40,710 bases of DNA from the sequence record NC_019710.1, one strand, 5' to 3'. The notes below the pieces were generated by a model. That model was not told the origin of the DNA. It saw nothing but the letters and a program-made list of their open reading frames with translations, and made no database searches. Source of the stretch: Enterobacteria phage HK140. Positions 27,738 through 34,087 of this stretch are shown here, in pieces (the first letter of the stretch is position 1; the number at the start of each line of letters is the position of its first letter). The translations under genes and the position numbers were made by a program.

Positions 27738-28045
27738 GCTGCTTCTCCATAAATGTGTCTGCGTTTGAATATTGCGAAGGCATATTCAGCCTTAACTCTT
27801 TCGGTTATTGCATCCCAGAACCATTCAGCGGCTTTTTCCTGATAGTTACAATCATCATCTTCCAGCCAGTCGATAGCGTCCTTAGTGTGTTCATCTGGTT
27901 TATATGAGCGAAGCATTTCGCTTATTGGGTCGCAACGTTTGCAGAGGCGATCAACTTCACTGTTGATTCGTTCGTAATCTTCATCAGTAAAACTTGCGAT
28001 TATTTGCGATATTTCACGCTTATCATTCAGAGTCAGAATCATCAT
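27734..28045 (-). CDS. Hypothetical protein
   Basis: 103-aa ORF; ATGA overlap with recT. Confidence 0.4.
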   Translation of the reverse strand: MMILTLNDKREISQIIASFTDEDYERINSEVDRLCKRCDPISEMLRSYKPDEHTKDAIDWLEDDDCNYQEKAAEWFWDAITERVKAEYAFAIFKRRHIYGEAA

Positions 28046-28126
28046 CTTTCTCCTGTTCTTTGTGCTGATTGAGCATTTTGTTCATCTGACGAATGAATTC
28101 TTCGTCTGACCAGTTATCTGTAAAAC

Positions 28127-28297
28127 TCATGGGCGGCCTTGTTGTTTCAAAATATCCCAAAGCTTTTCGAGCAAACTTTTCATTCTTGGTTGTTTAAAGT
28201 CTGCTCCGGTTAAAATGTTTTTTCGTGAATGCTGTACCGATAAAATCGGGTTGAAAGGGCGAACCGATGCCGCCCCTGCAATAGCGAACTGTTGCAT
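28127..28297 (-). CDS. cIII: CIII-like protein (candidate FtsH inhibitor)
   Basis: 56 aa from the internal ATG at 28297 (RBS AGGAG): MQQFAIAGAAS...KSLLEKLWDILKQQG resembles lambda CIII (MQYAIAGWPVAG...ESLLERITRKLRDGWKRLIDILNQPG). Confidence 0.55.
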   Translation of the reverse strand: MQQFAIAGAASVRPFNPILSVQHSRKNILTGADFKQPRMKSLLEKLWDILKQQGRP

Positions 28298-28523
28298 AGG
28301 ATGCTCCTTCTGTTTGATTACATAACGAAAACGCCTCGAGTGAAGCGTTATTGGTATGCATATAAAAAAGCCCTCACACTGGAGGGCAAAGAAGATTTCC
28401 AATAATCAGAACAAGTCGGCTCCTGTTTAGTTACGAGCGACATTGCTCCGTGTATTCACTCGTTGGAATGAATACACAGTGCAGTGTTTATTCTGTTATT
28501 TATGCCAAAAATAAAGGCCACTA

Positions 28524-28724
28524 TCAGGCAGCTTTGTTGTTCTGTTTACCAAGTTCTCTGGCAATCATTGCCGTCGCTCGTATTGCCCATTTATCGACAT
28601 ATTTCCCATCTTCCATTACAGGAAACATTTCTTCAGGCTTAACCATGCATTCCGATTGCAGCTTGCATCCATTGCATCGCTTGAATTGTCCACACCATTG
28701 ATTTTTATCAATAGTCGTAGTCAT
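28524..28724 (-). CDS. Hypothetical Cys-rich small protein
   Basis: 66 aa with four Cys (C-x5-C-x2-C-x5-C); RBS AGGA before the ATG; start overlaps a 27-aa acidic upstream ORF. Confidence 0.4.
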   Translation of the reverse strand: MTTTIDKNQWCGQFKRCNGCKLQSECMVKPEEMFPVMEDGKYVDKWAIRATAMIARELGKQNNKAA

Positions 28725-28937
28725 AAGGATAGTCCTGGTATTGTTCCATCACATCCTGGGGATGCTCTTCGAACTCTTCAAATTCTTCTTCCATATATCA
28801 CCTTAAATAGTGGATTGCGGTAGTAAAGATTGTGCCTGTCTTTTAACCACATCAGGCTCGGTGGTTCTCGTGTACCCCTACAGCGAGAAATCGGATAAAC
28901 TCTATTCACCCCTACAGAGAGCAAAAGAGAAACGCCG

Positions 28938-29519
28938 ATGAACAACTCATGGTGGCAGGAACTAATGCATTTTTTCCTGCAAGGAATGACACTTAAACAG
29001 TTGATTCATATGCTAATCATCCTGATCATATTGATTATTGTTATGCCGGTAAGCGTAAAAGAATGGATAAACCTGCATAATCCAGAAATCCTTCCTCATT
29101 ACTGGATGTATTACATCCTGTTGTTTTGCGTTAGCTATGTGCTTAACGGCGTTGTTAATTCCGCTTATCACGCTGTGACTGAAAGAATTGAGGTATTCGC
29201 TGCTCAGAAGCGCAAATCTAAAGAAGAAAAATATGTGCAAGATTTGTTTGATTCGTTAACTCTTGGAGAAAGAGCGTATTTGGCATTCGCTGTAGCCGCG
29301 AATAACCAGCTAAAGACAGAAAAGGGAAGCCCTGAAGCAATCTCATTGCTCGAAAAAGGGCTTCTTATTCGGATACCTTCTGCTACTGGATATCCTGAAA
29401 TCGACCGTTTTGTTATCCCGGAACGCTATAGAAATGAGTGCTACATTAGGTTTGCTGGGAAGAAAGACAGTCTTATGGATGAACTTATCGCTCAGGATAA
29501 GCATGGCAAAAACAAGTAA
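28938..29519 (+). CDS. Membrane protein, candidate SieB-like superinfection exclusion protein
   Basis: 193 aa; two N-terminal hydrophobic helices (LIHMLIILIILIIVMPVSV, YWMYYILLFCVSYVLNGVV) and a charged C-terminal domain; opposite strand to the surrounding early operon. Confidence 0.45.
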   Translation: MNNSWWQELMHFFLQGMTLKQLIHMLIILIILIIVMPVSVKEWINLHNPEILPHYWMYYILLFCVSYVLNGVVNSAYHAVTERIEVFAAQKRKSKEEKYVQDLFDSLTLGERAYLAFAVAANNQLKTEKGSPEAISLLEKGLLIRIPSATGYPEIDRFVIPERYRNECYIRFAGKKDSLMDELIAQDKHGKNK

Positions 29520-29534
29520 TTAGCAAATGATTTA

Positions 29535-29807
29535 TCATCTCGCCGTCAGTTGTTTTGATTTCCTGTAGCCTGCCGCGTAAATGGCTACGTTTGGCAGGCA
29601 AACACTTCCACTGCATTCATCAACTTTCTTGCAGCGAAGACTTCCGAGTGATGCTGCTTTGTCTGCTCTGACGCAACCAGAGAGCTTTAGCGCAATTTTT
29701 CGCGCCAGTCGCTGCTCTTGCATCGCCTGTTCACGTTGAGCCTGTCTGCGTGCTCTGCGGCGATTTCTGGCGTTATCGTCAGCCAGATATGTAATGACTA
29801 CTGTCAT
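29535..29807 (-). CDS. N: N-like antitermination protein
   Basis: 90 aa from the ATG at 29807 (RBS GGAGG); N-terminal arginine-rich motif DNARNRRRARRQAQREQ; first gene downstream of nutL. Confidence 0.6.
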   Translation of the reverse strand: MTVVITYLADDNARNRRRARRQAQREQAMQEQRLARKIALKLSGCVRADKAASLGSLRCKKVDECSGSVCLPNVAIYAAGYRKSKQLTAR

Positions 29808-30118
29808 GTTGACCTCCGATGAAACAACTTTGGAATTGATAGTGATTGCAAAGTGGTTTCTGGCCCCTCGAATTGAGGGGCAGAAAGAGCATCTCGCCAC
29901 CTAATAGGTCGATGCTCGGATCGAGAGATTTAATTAACCTCGGTTTTGAAGTTATGCATTCACATAAATCCTCCTGTTGCATGTGCAGCATTGGCTGTGT
30001 TTGGCGGCTGCATTTCGCCTATGGAATTGACTTTGGCGGTGACGCGCCGGGTGCTTATCTTCCGGTTGCCGTCGTGCAGCTGCACTTCACGTCACCCCAA
30101 AGCCAACTACTCTTTGGT

Positions 30119-30159
30119 TCCCGCATTTCGGCGGGACAATCCCATCAATGTTAAAGAGC
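30119..30159 (-). promoter_or_regulatory. nutL (boxA-like GGCTCTTTAA plus boxB hairpin)
   Basis: Minus-strand boxB TCCCGCCGAAATGCGGGA is identical to the nutR boxB; boxA-like element lies 14 nt upstream. Confidence 0.6.
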
Positions 30160-30206
30160 CTGCCAATCTGTTCCGTTTGGCTACCAGCGTCCTGCTGATG
30201 GTTAAA

Positions 30207-30292
30207 GAATACTGTAGGTATTTTATTTTGTAAATACTCAAGGTATTTATTTTGGTGAAATAATGATAAGCAAATGAATACAAAGGATATTT
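30207..30292. promoter_or_regulatory. OL operators (three 17-bp sites) and presumed pL
   Basis: GAATACtgtagGTATTT (30207-30223), AAATACtcaagGTATTT (30232-30248), GAATACaaaggATATTT (30276-30292). Confidence 0.6.
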
Positions 30293-30377
30293 ATTTTTTC
30301 GGCGTCTGCTTGTTCAGTGCTTTTTATGCGGGATATGTGAAGTGGATCCCGATAGCTATTGCTGCCGGGATTATGGG

Positions 30378-30746
30378 TTAGTCAGCGAAGGTTAAGACGA
30401 GAATTACCTTAATGATGTCTGCTACAACAGACACGGCCATAGATAAACCAAAGACGATCCAAGCCATAGAGATGTCTTCACTACCATCGTATAGAGTTCC
30501 GTAATCACTGGTATAAGGCGTAAATGTCGCGCCTTGATACAATAGGTATAAGCTTGATCCATAGAGGATAAATGCAGATATCCCTTGTATTGCTATGATC
30601 ACCAGAATCATGAAACGAGCTGATCTATGCGCCCAAGCCTGGCTTATTTTTTCTGATAGAGATTTCGCAAGAAAAGCATGCGCTAAGCCGTAAATTGTCG
30701 AGATTGCCAACATCCCAAAAAAGCTTGCTATAGCGGTTCCAACCAT
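30378..30746 (-). CDS. Small three-helix membrane protein co-transcribed with cI (lambda rexAB position)
   Basis: 122 aa from the ATG at 30746 (RBS AAGGGG), or 129 aa from the TTG at 30767 overlapping the cI stop; three hydrophobic segments; lies between cI and OL. Confidence 0.6.
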   Translation of the reverse strand: MVGTAIASFFGMLAISTIYGLAHAFLAKSLSEKISQAWAHRSARFMILVIIAIQGISAFILYGSSLYLLYQGATFTPYTSDYGTLYDGSEDISMAWIVFGLSMAVSVVADIIKVILVLTFAD

Positions 30747-30763
30747 AAGCGCCCCTTGCGTGA

Positions 30764-31480
30764 TCAAACCAGCCTTAGTTTTGTCTCAATTGCAACGCCT
30801 ATAATCTTGCAGTTTCCATTGATTGGCACGAGAGGCCATGCAGGATTAAGTCCCTTGAGGTATTTATTTCCGCCGTCGATTATCAGCTTCTTGAATGTTG
30901 CTTCGTTAGAGTCAGAAAGTTTTGCTATGACCAAGCTGCCGTTGACCGCCTCCCTTCCGGTATCGAAAAGAACGAATGTTCCCTCTGGAATGCTTAACCC
31001 AACCGGTGCCGTCATTGAATCACCTTCCACTTTAAGCCAGAACGCATTACCTTGAATATGCGCGTCAGACTCAAGCCAAACATCTATGTCTTTAATGGTG
31101 TATGGTTCGCATGCTTCACACCACGAGCCAGCCTGGATACTGCTTAACACCGGATACCTCTTTCCTGCTCTGTATTCCCCTGCATACCTTACGTTGGCAT
31201 CGCTCTTAAGGCTTTCTGCCTGTTCTGCAACCTTGGCAGCAATTGACTGGCTAAAATCAGCAATTGAGACTTGCAACAACCGTGCAAAACCAGATGCAAC
31301 CTCAACGTTTAGCGCGTTTCTGCCATTAAGATAATGCCCTACCGCTCCTTGGGTGATACCCAGTTCATCAGCGATTGAGTATTGGGTTATTCCCAATTCT
31401 TTCTTTTTTGACTCATACAAAGCCTTAAGCCGCTTAGCGTCTTCGAGCTGTTCTGTCGTCAGTGATTTTTTATTTTCCAT
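30764..31480 (-). CDS. cI: CI repressor (HTH plus S24 autopeptidase)
   Basis: 238 aa; N-terminal HTH (QYSIADELGITQGAVGHYLNG), C-terminal GDSM serine motif and downstream Lys; divergent from cro across OR. Confidence 0.9.
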   Translation of the reverse strand: MENKKSLTTEQLEDAKRLKALYESKKKELGITQYSIADELGITQGAVGHYLNGRNALNVEVASGFARLLQVSIADFSQSIAAKVAEQAESLKSDANVRYAGEYRAGKRYPVLSSIQAGSWCEACEPYTIKDIDVWLESDAHIQGNAFWLKVEGDSMTAPVGLSIPEGTFVLFDTGREAVNGSLVIAKLSDSNEATFKKLIIDGGNKYLKGLNPAWPLVPINGNCKIIGVAIETKLRLV

Positions 31481-31490
31481 AGCTTAATTC

Positions 31491-31556
31491 TAATAGCTAA
31501 GGTACTTAAACTAAAAATACCCTGAGTATTGATTGATTTGAATACCTGTAGTATTC
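31491..31556. promoter_or_regulatory. OR operators (three sites) with pRM and pR
   Basis: TAATAGctaagGTACTT (31491-31507, weak), AAATACcctgaGTATTG (31515-31531), GAATACctgtaGTATTC (31540-31556, perfect palindrome); spacing 24-25 bp. Confidence 0.65.
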
Positions 31557-31586
31557 TTTGTTCATGGTTAATAACGGAGAGTGCAT

Positions 31587-31781
31587 ATGATTCGAATGAC
31601 ACTTGCCGATTACGCCAAAATCCATGGACAGGCTAAAGCAGCCAGTGACTTTGGTGTAATCCAGTGCGCTATCAGCAAGGCCATTCTGGCAGGCCGTAAC
31701 ATCATGGTTACGGTAAAGCCTGATGGCAGTGTGATTGGAGAGGAAGTTCGTCCTTTCCCAAGCAACAAGAAAAACAAATAG
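31587..31781 (+). CDS. cro: Cro repressor
   Basis: 64 aa aligning with lambda Cro (ITLKDYA...GVYQSAINKAIHAGR...EEVKPFPSNKK) but with a different recognition helix ([12 protein letters not shown]). Confidence 0.9.
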
Positions 31782-31787
31782 TAACAC

Positions 31788-31831
31788 CGCTCTTTAACAG
31801 TCATGGTCATCACTCCCGCCGAAATGCGGGA
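31788..31831 (+). promoter_or_regulatory. nutR (boxA CGCTCTTTA plus boxB hairpin)
   Basis: boxA at 31788-31796; boxB TCCCGC-cgaaat-GCGGGA at 31814-31831. Confidence 0.7.
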
Positions 31832-31889
31832 ATACAACGCGCATAATTTGATGCGCATAACTTCTTATTTGTTAAGGAAATACTTACAT

Positions 31890-32168
31890 ATGCAACTTAC
31901 AAGTACTCGCAAGAAAGCGAATGCAATTACAAGCAACATCCTGAATCGAATTGCTGTACGTGGTCAGCGAAAGGTTGCCGACGCGTTAGGGATTAATGAA
32001 TCGCAAATTTCGCGATGGAAAGACAGCTTTATCCCAAAGATGGCCATGCTTCTGGCTGTGCTGGAGTGGGGTGTTGAAGACGAGGAATTAGCAAAGCTAG
32101 CAAAGAAAGTAGCCATGGTGCTGACAAAAGAAAAGCCTCAAGACTGCTGCAACAGTTTTGAGGCCTGA
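31890..32168 (+). CDS. cII: CII transcriptional activator
   Basis: 92 aa from the ATG at 31890 (RBS AAGGA); QISRWK...IPKMAMLLAVLEWGVEDEE matches lambda CII (SQISRWKRDWIPKFSMLLAVLEWGV). Confidence 0.85.
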   Translation: MQLTSTRKKANAITSNILNRIAVRGQRKVADALGINESQISRWKDSFIPKMAMLLAVLEWGVEDEELAKLAKKVAMVLTKEKPQDCCNSFEA

Positions 32169-32202
32169 TGTAGAAAGACTGGATCAATCCACAGGAGTCA
32201 TT

Positions 32203-33102
32203 ATGACAAATACAGCAAAAATACTCAACTTCTGCAGAGGTAACTTTGCCAAACAGGAGCGTAATGTGGCAGATCTCGATGATGGTTACGCCAGACTATC
32301 AAATATGCTGCTTGAGGCTTATTCAGGCGCAGATCTGACCAAGCGACAGTTTAAAGTGCTGCTTGCCATTCTGCGTAAAACCTATGGGTGGAATAAACCA
32401 ATGGACAGAATCACCGATTCTCAACTTAGCGAGATTACAAAGTTACCCGTCAAACGGTGCAATGAAGCCAAGTTAGAACTCGTCAGAATGAATATTATCA
32501 AGCAGCAAGGCGGCATGTTTGGACCAAATAAAAACATCTCAGAATGGTGTATCCCTCAAAACGAGGGAAAATCCCCTAAAACGAGGGATAAAACATCCCT
32601 CAAATTGGGGGATTGCTATCCCTCAAAACAGGGGGACACAAAAGACACTAATACAAAAGAAAAAAGAAAAGATTATTCGTCAGAGAATTCTGGCGAATCC
32701 TCTGACCAGCCAGAAAACGATCTTTCTGTGGTTAAACCGGATGCTGCAATTCAGAGCGGCAGCAAGTGGGGAACAGCAGAAGACCTGACCGCCGCAGAGT
32801 GGATGTTTGACATGGTGAAGACTATCGCACCATCAGCCAGAAAACCGAATTTTGCTGGGTGGGCTAACGATATCCGCCTGATGCGTGAACGTGACGGACG
32901 TAACCATCGCGACATGTGTGTACTGTTCCGCTGGGCATGCCAGGACAACTTCTGGTCCGGTAACGTTCTTAGCCCGGCCAAACTCCGCGACAAGTGGACC
33001 CAGCTCGAAATCAACCGTAACAAGCAACAGGCAGTCGTGACAGCCAGCAAACCAAAACTCGACCTGACAAACACAGACTGGATTTACGGGGTGGATCTAT
33101 GA
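32203..33102 (+). CDS. O: Replication initiator O
   Basis: 299 aa from the ATG at 32203; appears near-identical to lambda O from memory (MTNTAKILNF...); contains the ori iterons. Confidence 0.9.
   Translation: MTNTAKILNFCRGNFAKQERNVADLDDGYARLSNMLLEAYSGADLTKRQFKVLLAILRKTYGWNKPMDRITDSQLSEITKLPVKRCNEAKLELVRMNIIKQQGGMFGPNKNISEWCIPQNEGKSPKTRDKTSLKLGDCYPSKQGDTKDTNTKEKRKDYSSENSGESSDQPENDLSVVKPDAAIQSGSKWGTAEDLTAAEWMFDMVKTIAPSARKPNFAGWANDIRLMRERDGRNHRDMCVLFRWACQDNFWSGNVLSPAKLRDKWTQLEINRNKQQAVVTASKPKLDLTNTDWIYGVDL
32552..32636. repeat. ori iterons (four copies of the TCCCTCAAAACGAGGGA-type repeat) with adjacent A/T-rich region
   Basis: Four related ~18-bp repeats at 32552, 32572, 32597 and 32619, followed by an A/T-rich stretch at 32641-32675, inside the O gene. 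Confidence 0.8.
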
Positions 33103-33800
33103 AAAACATCGCCGCACAGATGGTTAACTTTGACCGTGAGCAGATGCGTCGGATCGCCAACAACATGCCGGAACAGTACGACGAAAAGCCGCAGGTACAG
33201 CAGGTAGCGCAGATCATCAACGGTGTGTTCAGCCAGTTACTGGCAACTTTCCCGGCGAGCCTGGCTAACCGTGACCAGAACGAACTGAACGAAATCCGCC
33301 GCCAGTGGGTTCTGGCTTTCCGGGAAAACGGGATCACCACAATGGAACAGGTTAACGCAGGAATGCGCGTAGCCCGTCGGCAGAATCGACCATTTCTGCC
33401 ATCACCCGGGCAGTTTGTTGCATGGTGCCGGGAAGAAGCATCCGTTATCGCCGGACTGCCAAACGTCAGCGAGCTGGTTGATATGGTTTACGAGTATTGC
33501 CGGAAGCGAGGCCTGTATCCGGATGCGGAGTCTTATCCGTGGAAATCAAACGCGCACTACTGGCTGGTTACCAACCTGTATCAGAACATGCGGGCCAATG
33601 CGCTTACTGATGCGGAATTACGCCGTAAGGCCGCAGATGAGCTTGTCCATATGACTGCGAGAATTAACCGTGGTGAGGCGATCCCTGAACCAGTAAAACA
33701 ACTTCCTGTCATGGGCGGTAGACCTCTAAATCGTGCACAGGCTCTGGCGAAGATCGCAGAAATCAAAGCTAAGTTCGGACTGAAAGGAGCAAGTGTATGA
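33099..33800 (+). CDS. P: Replication protein P (helicase loader)
   Basis: 233 aa; ATGA overlap with O; matches lambda P from memory. Confidence 0.9.
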   Translation: MKNIAAQMVNFDREQMRRIANNMPEQYDEKPQVQQVAQIINGVFSQLLATFPASLANRDQNELNEIRRQWVLAFRENGITTMEQVNAGMRVARRQNRPFLPSPGQFVAWCREEASVIAGLPNVSELVDMVYEYCRKRGLYPDAESYPWKSNAHYWLVTNLYQNMRANALTDAELRRKAADELVHMTARINRGEAIPEPVKQLPVMGGRPLNRAQALAKIAEIKAKFGLKGASV

Positions 33801-34087
33801 CGGGCAAAGAGGCAATTATTCATTACCTGGGGACGCATAATAGCTTCTGTGCGCCGGACGTTGCCGCGCTAACAGGCGCAACAGTAACCAGCATAAATCA
33901 GGCCGCGGCTAAAATGGCACGGGCAGGTCTTCTGGTTATCGAAGGTAAGGTCTGGCGAACGGTGTATTACCGGTTTGCTACCAGGGAAGAACGGGAAGGA
34001 AAGATGAGCACGAACCTGGTTTTTAAGGAGTGTCGCCAGAGTGCCGCGATGAAACGGGTATTGGCGGTATATGGAGTTAAAAGATGA
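33797..34087 (+). CDS. ren: Ren protein
   Basis: 96 aa; ATGA overlap with P; matches lambda Ren from memory. Confidence 0.8.
   Translation: MTGKEAIIHYLGTHNSFCAPDVAALTGATVTSINQAAAKMARAGLLVIEGKVWRTVYYRFATREEREGKMSTNLVFKECRQSAAMKRVLAVYGVKR

Follow-up and report, generated by a model that had tools for sequence, protein, structure and literature searches.

The immunity region of Enterobacteria phage HK140 is, on the evidence of its sequence, the region that controls lysis and lysogeny in a lambda-like phage, with six predicted repressor-binding sites. Its immunity type is already known: it belongs to the type of coliphage HK620 and is real but ordinary. We estimate a probability of about 0.9 that the region is best explained as a cI-cro immunity module of the HK620 type, operating as a lambda-style bistable switch. 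BLAST searches found DNA identities of 98.6-99% over 1.8 kb to HK620, mEpX2, HK630, HF4s, phi296/phi367 and Stx2c phages. The analysis covered the whole stretch of 40,710 nucleotides in record NC_019710.1, referred to below as the window. The features of the region are collected in Table 1.

Table 1. Predicted genes, promoters, operators and antitermination sites of the HK140 immunity region, in window positions.
Feature	Positions	Strand	Sequence or product	Basis
nutL	30119-30159	-	boxA GCTCTTTAAC, then boxB hairpin TCCCGCCGAAATGCGGGA	Sequence; boxB folds; HK620 annotates nutL
pL	30206-30234	-	-35 TTTACA (30234-30229), 17-nt spacer, -10 TATTCT (30211-30206)	Promoter scan; HK620 annotation
OL1	30207-30223		GAATACTGTAGGTATTT	Exact pattern match; identical and annotated as OL1 in HK620; kept in 7 relatives
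OL2	30232-30248		AAATACTCAAGGTATTT	Exact pattern match; annotated as OL2 in HK620
OL3 (proposed)	30276-30292		GAATACAAAGGATATTT	One core mismatch; weight-matrix rank 6; 44 bp from OL2
hkaS-like gene	30378-30746	-	Membrane protein, 122 aa	ORF list; hkaS in HK620; phrog_6534 (unknown function)
cI	30764-31480	-	Repressor, 238 aa	Pfam HTH_3 (N-terminal) and Peptidase_S24 (C-terminal autopeptidase)
Putative pRM	31480-31515	-	-35 TTTAGT (31515-31510), 17-nt spacer, -10 TAGAAT (31492-31487)	Sequence
OR3	31491-31507		TAATAGCTAAGGTACTT	Two core mismatches, starts with T; matrix rank 8; HK620 OR3; conserved in relatives
OR2	31515-31531		AAATACCCTGAGTATTG	Perfect 15-bp core, final G instead of T/C; HK620 OR2
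pR	31529-31558	+	-35 TTGATT (31529-31534), 18-nt spacer, -10 TATTCT (31553-31558)	HK620 annotation; sequence
OR1	31540-31556		GAATACCTGTAGTATTC	Exact pattern match; perfect palindrome; HK620 OR1
cro	31587-31781	+	Cro, 64 aa	Pfam Cro PF09048, E 3.6e-26; lambda-Cro family
nutR	31788-31831	+	boxA CGCTCTTTAAC, boxB TCCCGCCGAAATGCGGGA	Sequence and fold; HK620 annotates nutR
cII	31890-32168	+	CII, 92 aa	Pfam Phage_CII, E 2.4e-44

Genes of the control region

The layout is of the lambda type: cI and cro are divergent, with three sites between their start codons (31480 and 31587, respectively) and three at pL. The Peptidase_S24 domain of CI is matched in Pfam with an E-value of 1.3e-23, and the best solved match of the protein is 3bdn, the lambda repressor. 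In an alignment with lambda CI, the Ala-Gly cleavage site (A117-G118) and the catalytic residues S155 and K197 are invariant. Cro scores 91 bits against a PF09048 cut-off of 32.7, and among solved structures it matches those of lambda Cro best. The gene for the hkaS-like protein, which has no Pfam match, lies downstream of cI, where lambda has rexAB. The boxB sequence (TCCCGCCGAAATGCGGGA) is the same in nutL and nutR. An Rfam scan of positions 28000-34000 at E-values up to 0.1 returned no matches.

Operator sites and their conservation

The sequence-only reading had described operator-like sites in two groups of three, at OL and at OR, and these six are far beyond chance expectation. The strict pattern RAATAC-N5-GTATTY has three exact matches in 40.7 kb (OL1, OL2 and OR1), where shuffled sequences give an expectation of 0.01. 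Its core, AATAC-N5-GTATT, occurs six times with at most one mismatch, against 0.66 expected, and five of these matches fall in OL or OR. At two mismatches the enrichment within the window is mild (25 matches against 14 expected). A weight matrix was built from the four perfect sites, and the ranks in Table 1 are among all 40,694 window positions. The weakest of the OR sites is OR3, which overlaps the -10 hexamer of the putative pRM and occupies the same position as lambda OR3. One site had been described as a perfect palindrome; this is OR1 (GAATACCTGTAGTATTC), whose sequence is identical in Hafnia phage Pocitis76. The lambda-like spacing of 24-25 bp stands for OR, where start-to-start distances are 24 and 25 bp, but not for OL, where they are 25 and then 44 bp. 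Overall, the sequence supports reading these sites as the operators, at OL and OR, of a CI/Cro switch of the lambda type.

The relatives compared were Pocitis76 and prophages of Yersinia, Pectobacterium, Serratia, Pantoea and two Tatumella species, with Cro proteins 74-87% identical to that of HK140. In these sequences, the best matches to the weight matrix are almost entirely three OL and three OR sites, and operator arms are conserved while spacers vary. Positions 2 and 4 never vary across 96 half-sites; A2 is present in 96/96, A5 in 95/96 and C6 in 71/96. Both recognition helices, IQCAISKAI in Cro and QGAVGHY in CI, are likewise invariant. The relatives share with HK140 their recognition helices, half-site consensus, three-plus-three layout and leaderless-type cI start. 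Their OL-to-OR distances range from 1.4 to 2.9 kb, and the C-terminal domain of CI is more lambda-like in Pocitis76 than in HK140. A Pseudomonas relative with a Cro protein 42% identical to that of HK140 lacks the motif and is therefore uninformative about the sites.

The recognition helix of Cro can be read against an evolutionary code (Hall, Lefevre and Cordes 2005), as summarised in PMC6649833, that pairs Gln at H1 with A2, Ala at H3 with A5 and Lys at H6 with C6. The HK140 helix, I-Q-C-A-I-S-K from H0 to H6, retains the Gln, Ala and Lys, and the half-site retains A2, A5 and C6, in agreement with the code. The cross-genus set illustrates cleanly, in natural sequences, how CI, Cro and operators have diverged jointly from the lambda type. 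Of the base pairs, 2, 5 and 6 are kept together with the residues that contact them, while 1, 3 and 4 change together with neighbouring helix residues, a pattern that could be useful for work on protein-DNA recognition.

The third OL site

We lean towards the view that the functional OL3 of the HK620 type is misplaced in the reference annotation, and that the true site lies 44-45 bp from OL2, within the feature named 'tIMM' in GenBank, where the site at 30276-30292 falls. The HK620 record annotates OL differently, with OL3 about 22 bp from OL2 (approximately 30253-30269), an interval that would resemble the 20 bp between OL2 and OL3 of lambda. Under that annotation, the palindrome at 30276-30292 would be the stem of the tIMM terminator, which fits both its location, since a terminator would be expected downstream of the cI-hkaS operon, and the adjacent T/A run. 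We consider this arrangement unlikely. On the weight matrix, the sequence annotated as OL3, TGGTGAAATAATGATAA, has a negative score, and the stretch is not conserved in the relatives with 44-45 bp spacing. In contrast, the site at 30276-30292 ranks sixth of the window positions, and its arms are kept, with variable spacers, in the Serratia, Pantoea and two Tatumella prophages, all with the 44-45 bp spacing. The third site lies 28-29 bp from OL2 in three other relatives.

The hairpin of the supposed terminator is also weak. Folded on the cI-sense strand (30267-30297), it reaches -0.6 kcal/mol, a value equalled or bettered by 147 of 200 shuffles. A wider fold of positions 30250-30385 gave only a non-terminator hairpin just after hkaS. 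An OL3 at about 22 bp was rejected on both motif match and conservation. Operator and terminator roles of 30276-30292 are not strictly exclusive.

Should the displaced OL3 prove correct, the two classes of OL2-OL3 spacing could mean a cooperative or looping geometry unlike that of lambda OL, and the operator could also influence the 3' end of the cI operon. Cooperativity at OL may differ from that of lambda, since OL3 is 44 bp from OL2. A correction of OL3 is suggested for the HK620 reference record.

Promoters and the start of the cI transcript

The -10 hexamer of pL lies inside OL1 and its -35 hexamer overlaps OL2. Both pR and pRM are weaker matches to the promoter consensus than pL. A consensus scan for promoters and terminators also picked out a terminator-like site, which lies within cI and on the wrong strand.

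The start codon of cI has its A at 31480, and the first position of OR3 is 31491, which confirms the previously reported distance of 11 bp between the ATG and the nearest operator. The same 11-nt offset is found in lambda (37940 against 37951). In the putative pRM, six nucleotides separate the -10 hexamer from this A, the likely +1. In lambda, HK620, Fostie and seven further relatives, as in the window, a TAnAAT hexamer stands 6 nt (7 in Serratia) ahead of the ATG. No Shine-Dalgarno sequence precedes the cI ATG in the window, while cro has GGAG. A leaderless pRM transcript for cI is plausible on these features, and the earlier proposal of such a transcript holds at the level of sequence, given the conserved geometry and the lack of a Shine-Dalgarno sequence.

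Alternatively, the cI mRNA could carry a leader, whether from a pRM further upstream or through expression from pRE only, the short distance between the ATG and OR3 then being incidental. The hexamer TTTAGT is a poor -35 match, and the consensus scan, which found only pL among the promoters and placed pR below threshold, did not call pRM. We nevertheless judge a leadered message improbable: the -10-like hexamer keeps its distance from the ATG across relatives while flanking bases vary, the Shine-Dalgarno sequence seen before cro is absent before cI, and lambda, with like geometry, makes a leaderless cI mRNA. As for activation of the putative pRM, the centre of OR2 lies at -43 from the putative start, against -42 in lambda, so the activation geometry is not guaranteed.

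Proposed switch mechanism

We infer the mechanism of the switch, including binding order, activation and transcription start, by homology to lambda. CI dimers would bind the 17-bp sites through the half-site R-A-A-T-A-C-Y. At OR1 and OR2 they would occlude pR, whose -10 hexamer TATTCT is formed from the arm of OR1 and whose -35 hexamer overlaps OR2, and at OL1 and OL2 they would occlude pL. CI at OR2, centred near -43, would probably activate pRM. The cI mRNA made from this promoter would most likely begin at the A of the ATG or immediately beside it and hence be leaderless. Cro, with its predicted lambda fold, would occupy the same sites and turn cI off from OR3, which overlaps the pRM -10 hexamer TAGAAT. 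Induction would proceed through RecA-stimulated self-cleavage of CI at the Ala-Gly site. A literature search for binding, footprinting, transcription-start or cross-immunity experiments on HK620-type CI or Cro gave none, and the roles of the operators and promoters consequently rest on sequence and homology.

Immunity type and distribution

Coliphage HK620 and its immunity type were reportedly published by Clark, Inwood, Cloutier and Dhillon in J Mol Biol in 2001. The GenBank record of the phage (AF335538) annotates OL1, OL2, OR1-3, pL, pR, nutL and nutR at positions equivalent to those in HK140, and five of the six sites are already labelled as operators there. The 2001 paper is also cited in PMC2629481. 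At the protein level, residues 1-99 of CI are 100% identical to those of mEpX2 and phi296 and 99% identical to those of HK620 (tblastn). The next best matches after the HK620 group are Fostie (68%) and then lambda (about 50%), and outside the group no phage record exceeded 80% identity over these residues. Cro is 100% identical over its 64 residues to the proteins of HK620, HZ41 and HK630.

These results bear on the claim of the sequence-only reading that the region represents a distinct, uncatalogued immunity specificity. Such a claim could draw on the operator consensus, which is unlike that of lambda, on the absence of 434, 21, P22, HK022 and phi80 from the close DNA matches, and on the identity of at most 80% over CI residues 1-99 in every phage outside the HK620 group. 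It does not survive the comparison with HK620. The sharing of CI residues 1-99 (99-100%) and of Cro (100%) with HK620, mEpX2 and HK630, together with operators annotated in AF335538 and published in 2001, makes a previously uncatalogued specificity very unlikely, and the sites prove to be those of a catalogued immunity type. A new immunity type was rejected following BLAST searches against phages and E. coli genomes. HK140 does not belong to the classical types 434, 21, P22, HK022 or phi80 either, as judged by the DNA of the region and by CI residues 1-99. The remaining possibility, that the sites are functionless palindromes arising by chance in AT-rich intergenic DNA, has a negligible probability, since the mild enrichment at two mismatches (25 against 14) is outweighed by the three exact matches against 0.01 expected and six near matches against 0.66 in shuffles and by a three-plus-three arrangement retained with fixed phasing in other genera, and it was excluded on both grounds.

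The HK620-type immunity region is also found in mEpX2, HK630, HF4s, HZ41, vB_EcoP_phi296/phi367 and some Stx2c phages. By BLAST, 80% or more of the region is matched by only 14 phage records, with 434, 21, P22, HK022 and phi80 not among them, and 146 of 5426 complete E. coli genomes (about 3%) contain that much of it. The module is carried by several Stx-converting phages as well as by this fraction of genomes. Assignment to the HK620 group predicts which lysogens exclude HK140 and which prophages can coexist with it. Beyond annotation, the significance of the assignment is small.

Comparison with HK620 and lambda

The closest known system is that of HK620, which shares with HK140 the gene order N, nutL, OL/pL, hkaS, cI, OR, cro, nutR, cII and a DNA identity of 98.6-99% from nutL through cII. 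The sequences of OL1, OL3 (the site at 30276), OR1, OR2 and OR3 are identical in the two phages, while the spacer of OL2 differs by one base. A 1-bp deletion lies between OL2 and OL3, which are 44 bp apart in HK140 and 45 bp apart in HK620. Our assignment of OL3 differs from the HK620 GenBank annotation. The genomes around the modules also differ: that of HK620 is P22-like, whereas HK140 is a siphovirus resembling HK022 and mEpX2, and its P protein (233 aa) is of lambda size.

Compared with lambda, for which operators were taken from NC_001416, the HK140 proteins are 43% (CI, full length), 63% (Cro) and 55% (CII) identical, and the DNA-binding domain of CI is about 50% identical. Both phages have 17-bp sites with a central base pair, the same ATG-to-OR3 offset of 11 nt, and a CI with the S24 cleavage site and catalytic residues in common. 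The OR spacings are 24/25 bp in HK140 and 23/24 bp in lambda, and the pRM -10 regions read TAGAAT-TAAGCT-ATG and TAGATT-TAACGT-ATG, respectively. At OL the differences are larger, with 44 bp between OL2 and OL3 in HK140 and 20 bp in lambda. One small membrane-protein gene stands in place of lambda rexA and rexB, and as a result OL1 and OR1 are 1.33 kb apart, compared with about 2.4 kb in lambda.

The specificity differs from that of lambda, as had been proposed. The half-site is RAATACY in HK140 and TATCACC in lambda, with positions 2, 5 and 6 shared and positions 1, 3 and 4 different, and the CI recognition helices are QGAVGHYLN and QSGVGALFN. The Cro recognition helix is also unlike that of lambda, as first reported, with three differences in ten residues from QSAINKAIHA. 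HK140 thus falls outside the imm-lambda specificity, which is of the TATCACCGC half-site type. The accompanying idea that this specificity was grafted onto a lambda-like architecture is not borne out, as CI, Cro and CII, along with the -10 region of pRM and the positions of the operators, can all be aligned with their lambda counterparts. Since CI, Cro, CII and the OR DNA are diverged lambda homologues, the specificity appears to have diverged together with the proteins. By these alignments, the module is a homologue of imm-lambda whose parts have co-diverged, rather than a foreign specificity on a lambda chassis.

Identity of the immunity region

The region at 30119-31556 is the already known immunity region of coliphage HK620 (imm-HK620). 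A megablast search with 30100-31900 returned full-length matches at 98.6-99% identity in HK620, HK630, mEpX2, HZ41, HF4s, vB_EcoP_phi296/phi367, vB_EcoP-611R6, and two Stx2c phages. Among 5426 complete E. coli genomes, 146 carry 80% or more of the region, at up to 100% identity. CI residues 1-99 share 99-100% identity with the HK620 group, and Cro matches it at 100%; after that group, the closest phage matches are to proteins of phage Fostie (CI, 68%), Hafnia phage Pocitis76 (Cro, 86%), and lambda (CI, 50%; Cro, 63%). The HK620 record (AF335538; Clark et al., J Mol Biol 2001) carries annotations for nutL, pL, OL1, OL2, OL3, the terminator tIMM, hkaS, cI, OR3, OR2, OR1, pR, cro, nutR, pRE, and cII. 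By alignment, its OL1, OL2, OR3, OR2, and OR1 correspond exactly to the sites proposed by the sequence-only reading, whose suggestion of a new immunity type is therefore superseded by a catalogued one. In E. coli O111:H8 strain 2009C-3675 (NZ_CP077531 1956110-1959224), an IS1203 insertion splits the region, which matches in two pieces across 3.1 kb.

Apart from the immunity region, the window is similar to an entire lambdoid siphovirus genome of the HK022/mEpX2 type, with structural genes about 97% identical to those of mEpX2 and HK022. In HK140, HK620-type immunity is accompanied by O and P proteins of 314 and 233 aa, respectively, whereas HK620 and mEpX2 encode a DnaB-like helicase. HK140 joins the mosaic phages that carry imm-HK620; mosaicism of this kind is typical.

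Genetic organization

Features of the HK140 immunity region
Feature	Coordinates	Strand	Remarks
nutL	30119-30159	minus	boxA GCTCTTTAAC and boxB hairpin
OL/pL region	30206-30292		AT-rich
OL1	30207-30223
OL2	30232-30248
Candidate OL3	30276-30292
hkaS-like gene	30378-30746	minus	122-aa predicted membrane protein; extendable to TTG at 30767
cI	30764-31480	minus	238 aa; HTH_3 and Peptidase_S24 domains
OR region	between cI and cro		intergenic, 106 bp
OR3	31491-31507
OR2	31515-31531
OR1	31540-31556
cro	31587-31781		Pfam family Cro, E 3.6e-26
nutR	31788-31831
cII	31890-32168

Immediately left of nutL is an N gene of the phage 21/H-19B type; its product matches Pfam N_peptide, and HK620 N is annotated as resembling N of H-19B and phage 21. 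The 18-nt boxB hairpin TCCCGCCGAAATGCGGGA, with a 6-bp stem and 6-nt loop, is identical in nutL (30119-30136) and nutR (31814-31831). Directly downstream of cI, where lambda carries rexA and rexB, is the hkaS-like gene. Its protein matches phrog_6534 (function unknown), found no match in a Pfam search, and may provide a prophage-expressed exclusion or defence function. A 193-aa gene at 28938-29519 (plus strand), oriented opposite to the pL operon and in the position equivalent to HK620 hkaP, matches phrog_1301 (“superinfection exclusion; inhibits SieB”, E 8e-124).

Operator sites and their conservation

The operator set itself is strongly supported. In 40.7 kb there are three occurrences of the strict motif RAATAC-N5-GTATTY (OL1, OL2, and OR1), where shuffles predict 0.01; the 15-bp core AATAC-N5-GTATT, with at most one mismatch, has six matches where 0.66 would be expected, five of them in OL or OR. 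When the four sites with a perfect core were used to build a weight matrix and the whole window was scored with it, these four ranked highest, with candidate OL3 sixth and OR3 eighth. The consensus originally given holds exactly for three of the six sites and less strictly for the remainder. Likewise, the lambda-like spacing of 24-25 bp applies to OR (24 and 25 bp) and OL1-OL2 (25 bp), but not to the third OL site, 44 bp further on.

A scan with one genome per species recovered Cro proteins from Yersinia, Pectobacterium, Serratia, Pantoea, and two Tatumella species that are 74-87% identical to HK140 Cro, and the phage collection added Pocitis76. In the 5-6 kb loci of these relatives, nearly all of the top weight-matrix matches fall into two sets of three, one upstream of N and the other between cI and cro, spaced by 23-24 and 25 bp in OR and by 24-25 bp in OL1-OL2. 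Operator arms are kept, while the central five bases and inter-site DNA vary, a pattern that, at the sequence level, real protein-binding sites would be expected to show. Among 96 half-sites, A2 and T4 are each present in 96, A5 in 95, A3 in 87, and C6 in 71, with a pyrimidine at position 7 in 94. All these lineages have the same Cro helix (IQCAISKAI) and the same CI helix (QGAVGHY). At the locus of a Pseudomonas relative (Cro 42% identical), the operator motif is absent. The Pocitis76 locus (L004) has a tRNA-Gly annotated at 895-974, between N and nutL/OL, an unusual place in a lambdoid early-left operon.

Two placements of OL3 were compared within 30253-30297 (AF335538 7888-7931). The GenBank OL3 of HK620, 22 bp from OL2 (about 30253-30269, TGGTGAAATAATGATAA), contains no operator motif, has a weight-matrix score below zero, and lacks conservation in those relatives whose third site, like that of HK620, lies 44-45 bp from OL2. 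The alternative in our table falls within the annotated tIMM, whose hairpin on the cI-sense strand is negligible (-0.6 kcal/mol; 147 of 200 shuffles fold equally well or better). This alternative is kept as the third site, 44-45 bp from OL2, in HK620 and the Serratia, Pantoea, and both Tatumella prophages; in Pocitis76, Yersinia, and Pectobacterium the third site lies at 28-29 bp. OL2-OL3 spacing in relatives thus forms two classes. Judged by motif and conservation, 30276-30292 is the better candidate, which would be a minor correction to the HK620 reference record.

Predicted regulation

On the minus strand, cI is preceded by TAGAAT, TAAGCT, and then ATG. A TAnAAT-type hexamer 6 nt (7 in Serratia) before ATG is common to lambda, HK620, Fostie, Pocitis76, and the six prophages; it begins with the final two bases of OR3, and the intervening bases vary. 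The window has no Shine-Dalgarno sequence before the cI ATG; cro, by contrast, has GGAG upstream. The earlier suggestion of a leaderless cI mRNA from pRM is hence likely to be right. OR3 is offset from the cI ATG by 11 nt, as it is in lambda (37940 vs 37951). A candidate -35 (TTTAGT), 17 nt upstream of the -10 hexamer, abuts OR2 and would place the OR2 centre at about -43, compared to -42 in lambda.

By homology, CI on OR1/OR2 would occlude pR (TTGATT-18-TATTCT) and on OL1/OL2 pL (TTTACA-17-TATTCT); an operator arm forms the -10 of both promoters. CI at OR2 probably activates pRM, and OR3-bound Cro or excess CI would block its -10. The prophage would be induced when RecA stimulates CI to cleave itself at Ala117-Gly118, with Ser155 and Lys197 as catalytic residues. 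With 1.33 kb between OL and OR, looping as in lambda may be possible.

Relationship to lambda

In the lambda repressor-operator complex, Gln44 contacts base pair 2, Ser45 base pair 4, and Asn55 base pair 6. HK140 CI keeps Gln44 and Asn55 and replaces Ser45 with Gly, and its half-site (R1-A2-A3-T4-A5-C6-Y7) keeps lambda's A2, A5, and C6 and differs at positions 1, 3, and 4; given these contacts, the two retained CI residues fit the retained base pairs 2 and 6, and the replaced residue fits the altered base pair 4. The Cro helix retains lambda's Gln (H1), Ala (H3), and Lys (H6), but has Tyr to Ile at H0, Ser to Cys at H2, and Asn to Ser at H5. In the published Cro “evolutionary code” (PMC6649833), Gln at H1, Ala at H3, and Lys at H6 pair with A2, A5, and C6, respectively. 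As far as sequences can indicate, divergence of operator and protein is coherent, and a specificity distinct from that of lambda is upheld.

Among solved structures, the best matches are lambda repressor (3bdn, 1lmb) for CI and lambda Cro (5cro, 6cro) for Cro. CI is 43% identical to its lambda counterpart over its whole length, Cro 63%, and CII 55%. The OR DNA can be aligned with that of lambda, with OR3 in the same position and a nearly identical pRM -10 region (TAGAAT-TAAGCT-ATG vs TAGATT-TAACGT-ATG). These relationships make the module a diverged homologue of imm-lambda, rather than a distinct specificity grafted onto a lambda-like architecture as first proposed.
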